Shown one piece after another: positions 42,101-54,100 of a DNA stretch of 54,193 bases. Position numbers: made by a program. Each line of letters begins with the position of its first letter. The stretch's first letter is position 1. Origin of the DNA: Pseudomonadota bacterium (lineage in GTDB: Bacteria > UBA10199 > 2-02-FULL-44-16 > JAAZCA01); contig JAZDOG010000055.1 in the NCBI GenBank assembly GCA_043798915.1, forward strand, positions 1 through 54,193, written 5' to 3'.

Positions 42101-45100
42101 AAAGACGCAGGCGTGGCGGCCGGCGGAGGAAAGCAAGAGAGAGGAAGGCAGGGCAACCGAGAAAGTCGAGACGGTCCCCGAGGTGCAGCTTGAAAAACCG
42201 GCGGCAAAGCCCGGCATAAAGCGCCGGCTCGTTATGGTCGCTGCCCTGGCCCTCGTTTCGATCATCGCCGTCGCCTATTTTGCGAACCGGTTCTATTTCA
42301 AACCGCACAAGGTGAAAGAGCCTGCCCATGCTGCAGCCGCTGCTGAGGAAGCGCTTCCTGAAGGAACGGCCTTGCAGCCACGGGCCCTTAGCCCTGAGAC
42401 GCCGCCGGGGCCGCCTCAAGCGCCTCCACAGGCATCTCCCGGGCAGCTTCCAGCAGCGCCCCAGCAGGCCGGACAACAGATGCTGCCTGTGGTTCCAACG
42501 ACGAATCCCGCGCAGCCGGCCCAGCCTGTCCCGGTCTTCCTCGACTTCGCGTCCAGCCCGATGCCCGCGAAGGTGACGTTCGAGGACAAGGAACTGGGGA
42601 TGACCCCTCTCCGCATAAATGCGCAGCTGTCGCCTGGCCTCAGCTATCAGGCCCGCGCGCTCTTCGTGATGCCGGAGATCGAGCAGCAGTACACGCAGGA
42701 ATCGCAGTTCGCCGTTGAGAAGGATCAGTCGGTCGTCCCGATACTCTTCCGCGCGCCGATCGGCATGCTCAAGGTCATGAACCTCCCTCGCGACGTGCAG
42801 TTCTATCTGGAGGGAAAGTTCTCGTACGAAAAGTCCCAGGAGCAGACGGCCAAGCTCCAGGTGGTAGTCCTGCAGAAGCCGATCTACATGCCCTACGGAA
42901 ACTATTCGTTGGAGCTGCGCCGCTCTCGCCAGATGGGCGAGACGTCCCCGACGTCCGTCTCCGGCATCATCTTCAGGAGGGAATTCACCATCGCGCCAGA
43001 TAGCCCGACGTACACGCTCGAGGTGAAGGATGAGGACCTCACGGTCTTCCCCGTGAAGATACGCTCGGACCCGCCCAACGCGGATGTGTTCATGGACGGG
43101 AAGGCGGTCGGAAAAACCCCGTTTGAAGGCATTTTCCCGCTTGGCGGGCACAAGCTCACGCTGCGCAAAGAGGGTTATTTCGAGCATTCCGAGGACCTGA
43201 AGGTCGACGTCAACACGCCGTTCGTAGCCGAGGTGAAGCTCAAGGCGCCGATGGCTGGAGCGCACATCAACAACGCGAGGCAGGCCATGGGGAGGGCGAT
43301 GTACCAGGAGGCGATAAACGAGCTGGCCGAGGCGCTGAACTCTGCTCCAGCGCCCACCGAGGTGGCGCTTTCAAACTACCTGTTCGGCCAGTGCTATTTG
43401 AAGGTGGGCGATATCCAGAAGGCCATCGGCTATTTTACACAGGCCAGGGAGAGCGAGACGCAGAGGTATCCCGCGATTCTGGGGCTCGCCACTTCCTATG
43501 CGATGCTTCAGCAGATGAACCAGGCGCTGCCGCTTCTGGTCGAGGTGATGCTCAAGACGACGGACGACGAAACCAGGAGGGCGGCGCACGATCTCTTCCA
43601 GAAGATGTCGCCTTCACATTCTGTGATCTACGTCTACTCCGAGCCGCCCGGGGCCCAGGTGACGGTCAACGACAAACCGGTGGGGCAGCAGACCCCGGTG
43701 ATCCTCCACGAACTGCCGCTCGGCAACTATCGCCTGCGCGTCGACAAGCCGGGCTTCCTCCCGACCGAACTGAACCTTTCCCTTTCAGTCAACGAGTTCA
43801 ATCCTGTAGCAGTGAAGCTCAAGCCGATCCCTCAATAGGTAAGAAAAAGGGGATGTCCCCTTTTTCTTTCCCGCACTTGACAAACGCTGTCTGGAAAGGC
43901 TTTAAAGGCTGCGGTTGTCCGGCTAGCCTGTGAGGGATCCTATGGTGGAGCAGGATGTCGTTGTGGATGTCGACGAGCTCAAGTCCTTCGTCCGGAATAT
44001 ACTCGTAAAAATCGGCGTCCCAAACGATGACGCCATGATTGTCGCGGACAATCTCGTCGCGGCCGACTTGAGGGGCATTCCCTCCCACGGGGTGGCGAGG
44101 TTCGAGAGGTACGTGAAGGGAATCAGGGACGGACTCATCGGGCCCGTCACGACGCTCACCACCGTCGTCGAAACGGCCGCGACTGCGACGCTCGACGCAA
44201 ACGACGGCCTGGGGCAGGTTGCCGGCAAGGCGGCGATGGAGCTGGCGATCCGGAAGGCGGGAGAGTCCGGGGCCGGCTTCGTGGCTGTCCGCCACAGCAA
44301 TCACTACGGCATCGCCGCCTTCTATTCGATGATGGCCCTTTCCCGCGACATGATCGGCATATCGATGACCAACTCCGCGCCGCTGGTCGTCCCCACGTTT
44401 GGCAGCGAGATCGTTGTCGGCACGAACCCCCTGAGCGTTGCGGCGCCTGCTTCCGGCGAGCGCCCGTTCGTCCTGGACATGGCGACCTCCGCCGTTCCGC
44501 GCGGAAAGGTCGAGGTCTGTGAGAGGCAGGGCAAGCCCCTGCCGCACGGATGGGCGACGGACGATGAAGGCCGCGGGACGACAGATGCTGCCCTCGTCCT
44601 CAAAAATCTGCTCGAGAGGAGGGGCGGCGGGCTTTTGCCGCTGGGCGGGGAGGGGGAACTCCTAGGAGGGCACAAGGGCTATGGCCTTTCTCTCATGATC
44701 GACATACTCACGGGGGTCCTCTCCGGCGGGGCGTTTGGGACGCATCTCTATGAGAAAAAAGACGGCAGGCCCCAGCCCGCGAACGTGAGCCACTTCTTCG
44801 GCGCGCTCGATATCAAGAGCTTTCGTCCGGTCGGGGAGTTCAAAAAATCGCTCGACCGATACATGCTGGAGATCAAGGAGTCGGCCAAGGCGGCAGGCCA
44901 GTCCAGAATCTATGTGCACGGCGAGAAGGAGCAGGAGATGGCGGAGAGGCTTGCGAAGACGGGCGTCCCCCTCCATCCTAAAACCGCAGGGATGATGCGG
45001 CGCATAGCGACGGAGGTGGGGGTGCAGCCGTTTTGAGGAGGGACAAAATGGGGAAAAATATCACACAGAAGATACTTGAGGCGCACCTCAAGGAAGGCGC

Positions 45101-51100: not shown

Positions 51101-54100
51101 CACCAATCCCGATATGCGCGTGACGCAGCTCAAGGGCTTCGTGAAAGAGAGCTTTCCAGAGACCCGGCTCCTCAATTATGCGCTGGAGGTCGAGGCGATC
51201 ACCACGCAGAAGAAGGGGACGCTGATCCTGAATGTCGACGGCTGCATCGGCATCACGTTCGTCGATCTGCTCTGGTCGATGCCGGACCTCTTTACGAAAG
51301 AACAGGTCGACGAGATAATCGATATGGGGTGCTTGAACGCCCTCTTCGTGGTGGGGAGGTCGATCGGCATCTTCGGACACGTCTTCGACCAGAAGCGCCT
51401 GCGCCAGCCCCTCTGGCGCGTGCCATACGACGATATCGCGTATATGACGGATGTGAAGTGAGCGACGCATGATCCTTCGTTGTAACTATTCAGGCGCCTG
51501 TGTCTCTTTTCCCTCTCCCTTGAGGGGAGAGGGTCGGGGTGAGGGTGGCAGTGGCAACCGGGTTAAAAAATCGCAGGGTCACCCTCCCTCTGACTCCCTC
51601 CCATCAAGGGAGGGAGAATTTCGAAAGATGCACTGCTGAATAGTTACTCTTCGTTTATTGAATTGAATAGTGAACGATACTCGGCTTATACTCTGATTTC
51701 AGAAGAGGGGAGGGAATATGGGACAAAAAATGACGTGGGAAGAGATGAAAAAGGCATTTCCGGATGAGTGGATTGCGGTAGTCAACTACACTTCGAACGA
51801 GGCGGGCGATGTCGATGGCGATGTTGTATATCATTCAAACAACAAAGATGATTTCTATCGCGATCTCGAAAAACTCGTAAAGAAATATGGCGACGTCGCT
51901 ATGGAATACACTGGTGAGCGCATAAAAAATCCGGAGATTCCTCTTCTATGGCAGATTTCACATACAGCTTAGACAAGCGGCTCATTCTCGTGCCTGTTAC
52001 GCTTCATAGCCCAACAGGTGTTGTTAGAGCTAGATTCATACTGGATACAGGGGCTTCCTCTACAATTGTTGATTACCGCGTTGCCAAAACAATCGGCTAT
52101 ACATCAATGAATGCTCTCGCGCCTTCCCAAGTCAGCTCTGCTGTGGGGAAGGAAGAAGGTTTCAGAATTCAAATTGCCGCTTTTGAGACCTTGGGAAAAC
52201 GGCTCGAGAATTTTGATATTGCCTGTCATGCCCTTTTGGAGCAAGGGGTCGAAGGCCTCGTCGGTATGAGTTTTCTTGAGAGATATGATTTCTGCATCTA
52301 TCCATCAAAGCGGATGATTCGGATATAGGGACACCCGCTTCGCAATTTTCATCCCCGCAGGAGAGCGTTTCTTGACCCGGATTGTGTTTGTTTGTTGACA
52401 TTTTATAGTGCATATTGCATAATATATTGTGCATGATTGGGAGGTGGTTGTTATGCCATATGCGCGATATATTCTTGATGATAAAAGGTTTTTAGCCAAG
52501 CTGCGCGCGTTGGGCTTCAAGGGCGTTTTTGATTTTGCGGCCTCCAAAGGGATACACCGCAATACCGTGAGTCTTTATCTCAAAGGCGCCTGTGCGTTTT
52601 CCTCGGCATTTGACCGGATAGCGCGCGCCGTGGGCGCAGACCCGCTGGAGATAATTCATCCCGCCATGGAAGCATCTGCTGAAATAGAAGATCTCGATGA
52701 GATTGCGTCCGTCGTTTCTTTTCTGACGAGGCGCGACCACAAGGTCGCTTGCATGCTCCTGGGATCCAGGGCGATGAAGAAGGGCCGCGTTCATGCTGAT
52801 TGGGACATCGGCATCACACGTGGAGGGAAGCCTATCGGCGGAGATGAATATCTGGACCTCCGTGTCGGCGTGAGCGATATCGCTGAAAATCTTCCGCACG
52901 GCGTCGATCTCATCAACCTCGATGCCGCGCCTGCCTGGTTTCTGGAAGGAATCAAATACGATCCTATTTTTCTTGACGGCGATCGCGAGAGCTTCATCCA
53001 TTTTCAGGGGGTGTTGAATGGGATCAAAAAAAACATCGCCGCTTGACAAGGCCGTCCTGCATCTGGTGGATGCCCTCGCGATCTACGACAAGAATGCCAG
53101 CGACGAGCTTGCGTTCCTGACCGTCTCGAAGGCGTTCGAGGTGCTCGTCGAATACGGCTGGCGAGAACTCAAACGGAGGGTAGAGGATGAAGGGCTTGAA
53201 GTGCAGTCCCCGAAGGAGGCAATCCGGGAGGCGGCGAGGTTGAAAATTATCTCTGACCCCGAAAAATGGATCAAAGCAGTTGAAAACAGAAATGCAAGCG
53301 TGCACGATTATTTCGGGATTGGAGAAGAGTCATTCATTAAAATCGTTCGCGGTTTTTTGAAGCTCGCAAAGATGATCATCTGAATTCACTCAGCGCCATT
53401 CCCTTTTGATAATCTCGCGGATCCTTCTGTGCCTCGACGGGCCCTGGCAGCCGTAGACCTTGCGGCATTCGTGGGGTTTGACTGGATGGATGTCGCAGAG
53501 GCCCTTCGCGTTTAAGAAGATGCACGCTTTAGATTTGGGTTTCTGCACAGGTGACAGGGCGAGGATGCCATCTTCAAGGTGCTCGGCGCAGTATTTCGCC
53601 ACGAACTCCTTCTCGGACAACTTCAAAAACTTCGCCGCCACGCCGATCTCGTCGGGCAAAAACCACCCCGGCTCGCGCCTGCAGCACTCGCGGCACTTCT
53701 CGCAGGAACACCCTTTTTTGCGTGACGCGTGACGCCTGCCCGCCGATGGTTTAGTGGCGGGCGCGACGCATGACGCGAATTTCGAAGGCATCGTCAGCCC
53801 CTCTCGCCGAATATCGCGGTCCCCACGCGGACGATCGTGGCGTCCTCTTCGATCGCGACCTCCAGGTCGTGGCTCATGCCCATTGAGAGCTCGGCAAGGG
53901 GCGCGGGGAGCGAGTCATTGAGCTTCTTGAGCTCCTTGAAATAGGGCCTGCTCTTTTCCGGATCGGGGTCGTAGGGTGGTATGATCATGAGGCCGCGGAG
54001 GTTGAGGTGCCCAAGCGTTGCTAAATGTGAAGCGAGCGCTGCGATTCCCGACGGGGCGATGCCGGACTTCGTAGTCTCATCCCCGATGTTGACCTCGATC

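Follow-up and report, generated by a model that had tools for sequence, protein, structure and literature searches.

The window, by which the whole 54,193-nucleotide stretch of analysed DNA is meant, was found to carry five co-directional genes on the + strand, separated by gaps of 11, 21, 19 and 101 bp and preceded by GAGG/GGAGG-like ribosome-binding sites. The initial annotation had described them as an mdh-acn-idh-aclB-aclA operon, and the five genes in this order, with intact reading frames, were borne out, the families and catalytic motifs being confirmed. The acn gene (45048..46979, +) is predicted to encode a single-chain aconitate hydratase of 643 aa (PRK07229, 936, cut-off 612; TIGR01342, 896, cut-off 719) that keeps the Fe-S cysteine and active-site motifs. 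It is followed by idh (47001..48209, +), for a dimeric NADP-dependent isocitrate dehydrogenase (IDH) of 402 aa from the eukaryote-like subfamily (TIGR00127, 561, cut-off 397; PRK08299, 653, cut-off 335), also with intact motifs.

AclB (48229..49521, +; 430 aa), the ATP-grasp and citrate-binding subunit, matches PF16114 (294 bits), PF24948 (254 bits) and 6hxi_A (567 bits), and has N347, T349 and R379, which are taken here, from their role in human ACLY, to bind citrate. AclA (49623..51461, +; 612 aa), the CoA-binding, phospho-His and citryl-CoA lyase subunit, matches 6hxi_B over residues 6-609 with 892 bits; PF00549 and PF00285 score over cut-off and PF02629 is present. H273, H413, H488 and D539 are all found in AclA, and H273, H488 and D539 presumably make up the phospho-His and lyase His/Asp set, by human ACLY numbering; D539 aligns with a position reading Ala in 6znw. 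Judged by domains, residues and the full-length match to 6hxi and human ACLY, AclAB appears to be a genuine two-subunit ATP-citrate lyase (ACL).

The first gene of the five (43942..45036, +; 364 aa) belongs to the Ldh_2 (type-2 malate/L-lactate dehydrogenase) family (PF02615, 415 bits). It falls below the cut-off of all five matching NCBIfam models, with no equivalog cut-off reached, while its best PDB match is 1v9n, titled malate dehydrogenase (352 bits), as are the best-matching structures. It is probably a malate dehydrogenase (MDH), the substrate being inferred from these matches. The designation mdh held only in that the gene adjoins the operon here: Ldh_2 is a family label, and the gene is absent from the ACL loci of all 16 relatives. 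In genome G020 the flanking synteny is unchanged but the gene is missing, and the relatives' own Ldh_2 genes, 40-46% identical, have no TCA neighbours. Upstream lies a chimeric ORF (41772..43838, +) whose first ~68 codons copy Ldh_2 and whose remainder copies the upstream FHA/PEGA/TPR gene (domains: Ldh_2 at 1-61, then PEGA/TPR). Positions 41738-41982 are 87% identical to 43909-44152, and 41975-43838 are 90% identical to 39708-41550; the ORF is the remnant of a tandem duplication that took in the 5' end of the Ldh_2 gene.

Relationships of the ATP-citrate lyase

The enzyme had initially been called Eukaryote/Methanothrix-type, closer to the Methanothrix and human enzymes than to that of Chlorobium. 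The AclA scores behind this were reproduced (891.8 bits to 6hxi, 811.8 to human ACLY and 391.6 to 6hxj), and AclB follows the same order (567, 436 and 168 bits to the Methanothrix, human and Chlorobium-type structures), but as a statement of lineage the claim was unsupported in trees. The type name was rejected as a scoring effect, since the PDB contains no rTCA-type ACL besides that of Chlorobium: AclA of Persephonella is 56% identical to the window's AclA, about equal to eukaryotic ACLY (54-60%), and AclA of the Methanothrix family is 64-65% identical. The nearest relatives are ACLs of Elusimicrobiales (69-76% identical), which form one clade with the window's enzyme (SH-aLRT 99-100; all tree support values are SH-aLRT only). 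This clade is the only relationship that the trees support, and they indicate neither the Methanothrix enzyme nor eukaryotic ACLY as its sister. The AclA trees link it to an ACLY-bearing clade at 80-88 and place the Methanothrix link deeper, while the AclB tree links it to Methanothrix at 80, so that the subunits disagree; the fused ACLY of eukaryotes clusters outside the window's clade, with different prokaryotic ACLs.

The two-subunit ACL of Methanothrix (Methanosaeta concilii, PDB 6HXI/6ZNW) is the best solved match (892 + 567 bits) and is like the window's in subunit split and domain order. It differs in having an IPMI/homoaconitase-type gene after aclBA and no IDH within 5 kb.

Gene neighbourhood and distribution

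An acn gene adjoining aclBA or idh-aclBA was seen in 10 of 16 ACL-bearing relatives, extending the earlier 8 of 11; the other six loci are cut short by a contig end or interrupted by additional genes. Outside the phylum, 39 of 46 ACL loci have aconitase as the adjoining gene, and of 158 loci at greater distance 104 show an aconitase-family match no more than 5 kb away. Among anaerobes the acn-(idh)-aclBA cassette is widespread, including Elusimicrobiales and Thermoplasmata, which share it with the window. Most Elusimicrobiales keep SCS, unlike the ACL genomes of this phylum, which lack it in 16 of 17 cases and often have the sodium-pumping oxaloacetate decarboxylase (OAD). In five relatives from two families (G005, G009, G012, G014 and G015) birA-oadA-oadB is divergent from the cassette aconitase, and oadA occurs in 11/17 ACL genomes versus 0/20 citrate synthase genomes.

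The earlier counts were recovered: ACL occurs in 17 of the 93 genomes of the phylum and in 11 of the family's 13, and full citrate synthase in 4 of the order's 22, all from family f2. Citrate synthase is present in 64 of the 93 genomes and never together with ACL (0/17). These are raw counts over related genomes, which are not independent of one another. The proposal that ACL replaces citrate synthase across the order stood as far as mutual exclusion with Si-citrate synthase is concerned, but ACL is found in only 14 of 22 genomes and replacement is not demonstrated; four of the 22 have neither enzyme, and these four also lack IDH. As the ACL genomes lack SCS (16/17), NAD-MDH and heme-copper oxidase, the exclusion belongs to a broader divide between aerobes and anaerobes and is no proof of functional replacement. 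Citrate synthase and ACL together would make an ATP-wasting cycle, so that exclusion is expected whichever way the flux runs.

Among the oxidase-less genomes of a 48-genome panel, SCS was detected in 0/16 with ACL versus 7/9 with neither ACL nor citrate synthase. All nine of the latter have two-subunit OGOR and eight lack any IDH, so close relatives can do without making 2-oxoglutarate de novo. The ACL branch so alternates with an OGOR+SCS route, a contrast seen again within families f3 and f11. IDH of one of two unrelated types is present in 16 of 17 ACL genomes, and whole sister genera are without the branch, which is read as loss. In this phylum ACL goes with the loss of an aerobic TCA cycle and not with autotrophy, a clean counter-example to the common practice of taking aclAB to indicate carbon fixation by rTCA.

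Metabolic context of the genome

The genome, 97% complete, has the features of an amino-acid fermenter. Outside the operon, the window encodes an AMP-forming acetyl-CoA synthetase (2991..4967, -; TIGR02188, 1009, cut-off 725) and, as context for such a lifestyle, the lysine fermentation genes kdd, kamA-like, kamD and kamE (7207..12205, +; NF052381, NF052384 and NF052385 over cut-off, with the kamA-like gene at 496 to TIGR03820, under the cut-off of 525). Inputs to glutamate are GDH, whose gene lies beside a POT peptide transporter, proline dehydrogenase, P5C dehydrogenase and ornithine aminotransferase from Pro/Orn, and formiminotransferase-cyclodeaminase from His. Acetolactate synthase, isopropylmalate synthase and ArgB were not found in the genome, so that amino acids, glutamate included, have to be imported. 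SdhCAB and PorABCD are present, MDH is represented only by the Ldh_2 enzyme, and a FumC/AspA-family enzyme is ambiguous (aspA subfamily 550, cut-off 510; fumC 546, cut-off 665). All enzymes of the branch formed by IDH, aconitase and ACL are ordinary soluble proteins.

The reported lack of citrate synthase was confirmed, the sole PF00285 match in the genome being AclA; Re-citrate synthase was not found either, the sole HMGL-like protein being 4-hydroxy-2-oxovalerate aldolase. The claim that SCS is missing held for SucCD but is not airtight, since an ADP-forming acyl-CoA synthetase (ACD) is present, and this family provides SCS activity in Thermococcus kodakarensis according to the available part of PMC11921379. 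Only two four-subunit POR clusters and no two-subunit OGOR (TIGR03710, best match 136 bits, cut-off 483) were again detected. The initial annotation had allowed that one POR could accept 2-oxoglutarate, but by profile both beta subunits are Por/Vor-type: that of C57 passes the PorB cut-off (410 vs 405), and that of C103 reaches 365 with VorB against 59 with the KorB-type model. The structure 6n2n, taken here to be a solved OGOR, scores 40 and 28 bits on the two PORs, versus 224 and 304 for a PFOR. The substrates given for both PORs and for the acyl-CoA synthetase are predictions. Neither sucAB, Kor-type OGOR, glutamate mutase, 2-hydroxyglutaryl-CoA dehydratase nor glutamate decarboxylase was found in the genome. 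With SCS, Kor-type OGOR and both Si- and Re-citrate synthase missing, an rTCA cycle is unlikely, in agreement with the earlier view that the operon does not denote carbon fixation.

Direction of flux

By reactions close to equilibrium, IDH, aconitase and ACL would connect the pool of glutamate and 2-oxoglutarate with acetyl-CoA and oxaloacetate. In the window's genome the cleaving direction is favoured over citrate synthesis, and it is proposed, with a probability of roughly 0.52, that the branch runs reductively from glutamate to 2-oxoglutarate, citrate and finally acetyl-CoA plus oxaloacetate. In the host, an anaerobic, amino-acid-auxotrophic peptide fermenter, GDH would turn glutamate derived from peptides and from Pro, Orn and His into 2-oxoglutarate by oxidation; carboxylation by NADP-IDH would then yield isocitrate, and aconitase would supply the citrate that ACL cleaves at the cost of one ATP. 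The Ldh_2 enzyme, malic enzyme, PEPCK or aspartate aminotransferase may drain oxaloacetate here, a task for which OAD is available in many relatives; ACD could regain ATP from acetyl-CoA. This would be a single carboxylation within a catabolic route and not an autocatalytic rTCA cycle. Support comes from the glutamate inputs combined with the lack of any other 2-oxoglutarate or glutamate exit found, from the lack of an energised oxaloacetate supply, and from the SCS/IDH pattern of oxidase-less relatives together with OAD beside the cassette. Against it, OAD also occurs in G016 and G017, both without ACL; two-subunit OGOR is retained in 7/17 ACL genomes, where the branch is not needed as a 2-oxoglutarate exit; and SCS is present in 31/46 ACL genomes outside the phylum, so its exclusion is not general. 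At assumed cell concentrations the reductive direction came to -21.5, -10.1 and -1.4 kJ/mol in three cases and to +3.6 kJ/mol in a fourth with an energised oxaloacetate supply. In favour of the reductive reading, the Table 1 values from the available part of PMC13147460 give that branch a total of -3.1 kJ/mol, or -29.6 with MDH.

The same enzymes could run the other way, ACL condensing acetyl-CoA and oxaloacetate in the place of citrate synthase with a gain of ATP, and aconitase and IDH then supplying 2-oxoglutarate, glutamate and NADPH. This appears rather unlikely here, but is in keeping with the strict exclusion of Si-citrate synthase in the phylum and with full-length citrate synthase in only 2/46 ACL genomes outside it, with the IDH that accompanies ACL, and with the Methanothrix family, in which 5/5 genomes have ACL without intact citrate synthase. 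Members of that family are acetate users and are not known as amino-acid fermenters. Outside the phylum, acs is divergent to the cassette in 22/158 loci and a pyruvate-carboxylase-B-like (pycB-like) gene follows it in two (L148 and L187), both pointing to citrate formation. The oxidative cycle of Desulfobacter postgatei includes OGOR, a CoA-transferase and a membrane-bound malate dehydrogenase. An ATP-yielding ACL in that cycle is attributed to Moller et al. 1987 in the portion of PMC8085960 available; by this account the organism shares with the window ACL without citrate synthase in an anaerobic heterotroph, but its cycle is closed, whereas those three enzymes were not found in the window's genome. 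Against citrate formation, neither pyruvate carboxylase, PEP carboxylase, OAD nor malate:quinone oxidoreductase was found in the genome to raise oxaloacetate, glutamate is among the imported amino acids, and IDH is missing in 8/9 of the oxidase-less relatives described above. By the PMC13147460 values, as far as that source was available, malate to 2-oxoglutarate costs +29.6 kJ/mol with ACL versus -17.2 with citrate synthase, and the route from PEP +9.6. The same portion treats OAD as oxaloacetate-forming in rTCA autotrophs; OAD is reversible, and a citrate-forming route with a sodium gradient sums to -11.4 kJ/mol, which speaks against the reductive reading.

A closed cycle with hidden steps, running oxidatively like that of Desulfobacter or, given H2, reductively, in which a four-subunit POR would act as OGOR and ACD as SCS, seems improbable. 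SdhCAB, the FumC/AspA-family enzyme, the Ldh_2 enzyme and ACD are all at hand, the Thermococcus precedent applies, and Garritano et al., in the accessible part of PMC9802188, predicted rTCA autotrophy in Elusimicrobiota, which hold the nearest ACLs; but the POR profiles and 6n2n scores point elsewhere, CoA-transferases of families I or III were not found in the genome, and the many missing amino-acid pathways argue against autotrophy. Very improbable is a low-flux valve balancing aspartate against glutamate, or the cleavage of imported citrate, even though whole sister genera have lost the branch and, by the PMC13147460 portion, it lies within ~3 kJ/mol of equilibrium at 1 mM. OAD beside a citrate-cleaving enzyme, as in the five relatives, is the layout of Klebsiella citrate fermentation in the part of PMC8085960 consulted here; the lyase of this cassette is instead ATP-dependent and comes with aconitase and IDH, and the window's genome has no OAD. 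IDH, kept in 16/17 ACL genomes, would be superfluous for citrate cleavage alone, and no citrate transporter was noticed in the surroundings of the operon, no search of the genome having been aimed at one.

Eukaryotic reductive glutamine carboxylation proceeds by IDH, aconitase and ACLY, and feeds lipid synthesis in animals. It comprises the same three reactions in the direction favoured here, and the window's IDH is from the eukaryote-like NADP subfamily; unlike the animal route, the window's genome has none of FabD/H/F, AccBC or BirA. If the reductive reading is true, the cassette would be a further way of fermenting glutamate, the prokaryotic counterpart of that route, and one that many anaerobic lineages have come to share through gene transfer. 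A wider proposal is put forward tentatively, at less than even odds: the cassette, acting together with POR, ACD and either OAD or malic enzyme, may constitute an undescribed reductive-carboxylation glutamate fermentation. Uncultured peptide fermenters would use it in alternation with OGOR+SCS, and some of the 'rTCA' assignments made for Elusimicrobiota and Thermoplasmatota may reflect this catabolic route instead. Glutamate would yield 2 acetate, CO2, NH4+ and reduced ferredoxin, with ~1 net ATP plus sodium pumping by our own bookkeeping.

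The operon and its surroundings

The five genes at 43942-51461 on the + strand were found where the initial annotation had placed them, on one strand and separated by short gaps. Family scans assigned them to an Ldh_2-family dehydrogenase (previously 'mdh'), a single-chain aconitase (acn), a eukaryote-like NADP-dependent isocitrate dehydrogenase (IDH, idh) and the two subunits of ATP-citrate lyase (ACL), aclB and aclA; the catalytic motifs of the operon enzymes are intact, and the scores earlier obtained for ACL against PDB entries were reproduced exactly. The genome, here designated G000, comprises 2.34 Mb with 97.2% completeness and 3.3% contamination. 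A promoter scan returned 6 promoter-like sites versus 2.9 +/- 1.7 expected, with none upstream on the + strand, and a terminator scan gave terminators at no more than chance level. Palindromic G+C-rich stretches of the CCCTC...GAGGG type, located at 49522-49622 between aclB and aclA and at 51462-51620 past aclA, look like REP-type elements or hairpins. Further past aclA, the segment 51718-53383 includes a small hypothetical gene, an aspartyl-protease-like ORF and a nucleotidyltransferase/HEPN-like pair, as called by eye on the translations, and inserts of this kind also occur around the acn-(idh)-aclBA cassette in relatives.

The dehydrogenase gene was considered as a conserved member of the operon, a view that did not hold, as an Ldh_2 gene was present in 0/16 of the ACL loci of relatives. 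In one genome (G020) the TPR-FHA/PEGA-acn-idh order is that of the window, minus the Ldh_2 gene. Ldh_2 genes 40-46% identical were found in 9 of the 47 other genomes of the panel described below, at other loci, and a metagenome scan for close relatives gave a single match (42%). The segment 39226-44152 carries a tandem duplication with an internal deletion, its copies being 87-90% identical; either a genuine duplication of some age or strain mixing in the assembly may account for it. A chimeric Ldh_2(1-68)/PEGA-TPR ORF at 41772-43838 is the product of this local duplication, which took in the 5' end of the Ldh_2 gene.

Aconitase directly adjoins aclBA or idh-aclBA in 10/16 relatives. In G005, G009, G012, G014 and G015, birA-oadA-oadB, encoding a sodium-pumping oxaloacetate decarboxylase (OAD), is divergent from the aconitase gene of the cassette; oadA was not found in G000. 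A birA-oadA-oadB(-bioY-like) unit is conserved in anaerobic members of the phylum (loci L049, L054, L055, L065 and L080-L086), and no OAD gamma subunit was seen by the birA-oadA-oadB units among ORFs of at least 110 aa.

Distribution of ATP-citrate lyase and citrate synthase

The citrate-binding domain was detected in 17 of the 93 phylum genomes, confirming the earlier count of ACL. PF00285 matches occurred in 81 genomes, of which 17 correspond to the C-terminus of AclA and 64 to Si-citrate synthase (CS; a few are contig fragments), such that 12 genomes have neither enzyme; no genome (0/93) has both. Within the order (n = 22), ACL was found in 14 genomes, CS in 4 and neither in 4. A panel of 48 genomes was assembled from every ACL carrier (17), 11 of the 12 genomes lacking both enzymes (the omitted one, G036, is 60% complete) and 20 of the 64 CS carriers. 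Succinyl-CoA synthetase (SCS) was present in 1/17, 9/11 and 20/20 of these groups, respectively, the heme-copper oxidase family in 1/17, 2/11 and 17/20, and NAD-type malate dehydrogenase (MDH) in 1/17, 1/11 and 18/20. From these counts, CS is a marker of aerobes whose oxidative cycle is complete, and ACL is one of a subset of the anaerobes in which this cycle was lost. As the panel genomes are related and were counted without a species tree, the contrasts are descriptive; they were seen again within families f3 and f11. In the same three groups, oadA exceeded the cut-off in 11/17, 2/11 and 0/20 genomes.

IDH, of either the dimeric or the unrelated monomeric type, accompanies ACL in 16 of 17 genomes and is missing in 8 of the 9 oxidase-less genomes that have neither ACL nor CS; two-subunit 2-oxoglutarate:ferredoxin oxidoreductase (OGOR) is found in all nine of the latter and SCS in seven. 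Among the ACL genomes, 7 have a two-subunit OGOR over the cut-off and 3 have it in split or partial form; the other 7, including G000, lack it. A combination of aconitase and ACL without IDH was considered for the seven ACL genomes that had no PF00180 match, except for a contig-end fragment in G019, and was discarded on finding monomeric IDH in 6 of them. Isocitrate lyase was found in 0/5.

Beyond the phylum, 46 of 70 loci were retained, the others being in-phylum (13), short or redundant (10) or an SCS match (1). Aconitase adjoins ACL in 39 of the 46, and full-length CS was found in 2 of the 46 genomes. A set of 158 more distant loci, a few of which duplicate members of the 70-locus set, included aconitase-family matches in 104 (counting weak LeuC-type matches in Methanothrix); IDH of the monomeric type occurred in 36 of these loci and of the dimeric type in 11. 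In 22 of the 158, Thermoplasmata loci within L170-L348, acs is divergent to acn-aclBA-monomeric idh. The Methanothrix genome G143 (locus L257) has a CS gene broken into two pieces with two TAG stops and an intact ACL elsewhere. Among the hosts are Thermoplasmata, Bathyarchaeia, Asgard archaea, Micrarchaeota, Caldiserica, Bipolaricaulota, Cloacimonadota and Thermotogae, and the operon belongs to a widespread kind. ACL in genomes lacking a full reductive TCA cycle (rTCA) is already described (10.1101/2022.10.25.513756), an ATP-yielding ACL is reported from Desulfobacter (PMC8085960), and on the basis of ACL, rTCA has been predicted for both Elusimicrobiota and Thermoplasmatota (PMC9802188). This clade may already figure in Supplementary Fig. 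28 of PMC11976288 or in a supplementary table of 10.1101/2022.10.25.513756.

Metabolic content and direction of flux

G000 was inventoried by targeted search rather than full annotation, 52 of approximately 1950 predicted proteins being profiled in the main scan. Judged by its genes, the organism is an amino-acid fermenter. It carries genes for lysine fermentation, glutamate dehydrogenase beside a peptide transporter, proline and ornithine degradation, a branched-chain aminotransferase and a histidine-degradation enzyme, together with an acyl-CoA mutase, an ADP-forming acyl-CoA synthetase (ACD), PEPCK, NAD malic enzyme, SdhCAB, a FumC/AspA enzyme and cytochrome bd. The targeted search did not find sucAB, sucCD, aceEF, gltB, ppc, argB, scpC, atoDA, acetate kinase (Ack), Pta, family III CoA-transferase, acetolactate synthase, LeuA, PycB, MQO, 2-hydroxyglutaryl-CoA dehydratase or glutamate mutase. 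A Re-citrate synthase acting as a hidden CS was ruled out, since the sole HMGL-like protein is an aldolase. A GABA shunt was discarded as a bypass, since the targeted search found no glutamate decarboxylase to go with the SSADH-like gene beside fumC, and ACD and pyruvate kinase rule out ACL as the only source of substrate-level phosphorylation. On contig C57 (L030:912-7987), kce and porCDAB share a single stretch with NuoE/F/G-like genes, which would wire pyruvate oxidation to a probable bifurcating NADH module. On contig C103 (L031:1745-6240), the delta subunit of a Vor-like 2-oxoacid oxidoreductase is fused to a GltD-like NAD(P) flavoprotein (PRK12771, 553 over 516), and the enzyme may hand electrons directly to NAD(P). 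Both putative 2-oxoacid oxidoreductases are far from Kor-type OGOR in sequence. FabD, FabH, FabF, PlsX, AccB, AccC and BirA gave no tblastn match in G000, the only fatty-acid genes detected being those for FabG-like SDRs and, on a 5 kb contig, for ACP; lipids may be taken from prey or host, or the missing genes may be unassembled.

Values listed in Table 1 of PMC13147460 for carboxylation by IDH (+11.7 kJ/mol), aconitase (-6.8) and cleavage by ACL (-8.0) sum to -3.1 kJ/mol for the reductive branch. The IDH-aconitase-ACL branch is reversible and its partner reactions set the direction. On values from the same source, starting from malate, CS pulls MDH uphill (-17.2 kJ/mol), which ACL cannot do (+29.6), and the citrate-forming sum is +9.6 kJ/mol from PEP via PEPCK and -11.4 via sodium-driven OAD. 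Of the cases calculated with assumed concentrations, the sole one to favour citrate formation included an energised supply of oxaloacetate, and the targeted search of G000 found no such supply.

These energetics favour cleavage in G000, as do the funnelling of amino acids into glutamate, the failure to find other exits and the way ACL alternates with SCS, and a reductive, glutamate-consuming branch leading through citrate to acetyl-CoA and oxaloacetate is the preferred reading (probability roughly 0.52). The initial annotation had instead regarded ACL as a replacement for CS without rTCA; its second part very probably stands on gene content, and its first, in which ACL would form citrate, is now a tentative alternative. 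Against cleavage in G000, OAD is able to act as a carboxylase, acs flanks the cassette in 22/158 distant loci and a pycB-like gene in 2 loci, and 5/5 Methanothrix-family genomes have ACL without an intact CS; moreover, SCS is present in 31/46 ACL genomes outside the phylum, so that its exclusion is not a general rule. The direction of the cassette probably differs between hosts. A closed cycle seems unlikely, and a valve or citrate scavenging is improbable; operation as rTCA can be set aside with considerable confidence. Thermococcales are known to have an ACD-type SCS and to catabolise glutamate through OGOR (PMC11921379). Literature searches at the level of titles and abstract openings, in a library lacking most subscription papers, turned up no account of ACL-based glutamate fermentation, nor of a branch that consumes glutamate, is linked to OAD and alternates with SCS.

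Ancestry of the lyase

ACL trees (AclA, 74/106 and 52/106 rows; AclB, 55/105 rows) were rooted on Persephonella and Sulfurovum, with SH-aLRT as the sole support measure; they contain neither Chlorobium nor the two-subunit ACLs of plants and fungi. The ACL of the window clusters with its own phylum and Elusimicrobiales at 99-100, and fused eukaryotic ACLY with Thermoplasmata, Syntrophomonadaceae, Anaerolineae and one Elusimicrobiota sequence at 97-100, in agreement with PMC11976288, which puts ACLY with Thermoplasmatota. The enzyme had been described as of Methanothrix/eukaryote type, an assignment that was not sustained, its clade joining the eukaryotic ACLY group at only 80-88 (AclA) and Methanothrix at 80 (AclB). 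Identity to the window's AclA is 56% for Persephonella and 54-60% for eukaryotic ACLY; the former is thus as close as the latter, and rTCA cannot be dismissed on sequence type alone. It is gene content that, with high probability, excludes it. In the same SH-aLRT-supported trees the ACL of G045 has a separate origin, and in that genome an acyl-CoA transferase/GNAT fusion comes after aclA (L059:5300-8428).

Matches of 1020-1040 aa, considered as AclB-AclA fusions, proved to be internally duplicated AclA. A family of 1000-1040 aa proteins (P0003, P0005, P0009, P0021 and P0024) has two tandem copies of AclA, with ADRD in the first lyase domain where ADHG is usual, and in the AclA trees two such tandem proteins lie nearest to fused eukaryotic ACLY (100).
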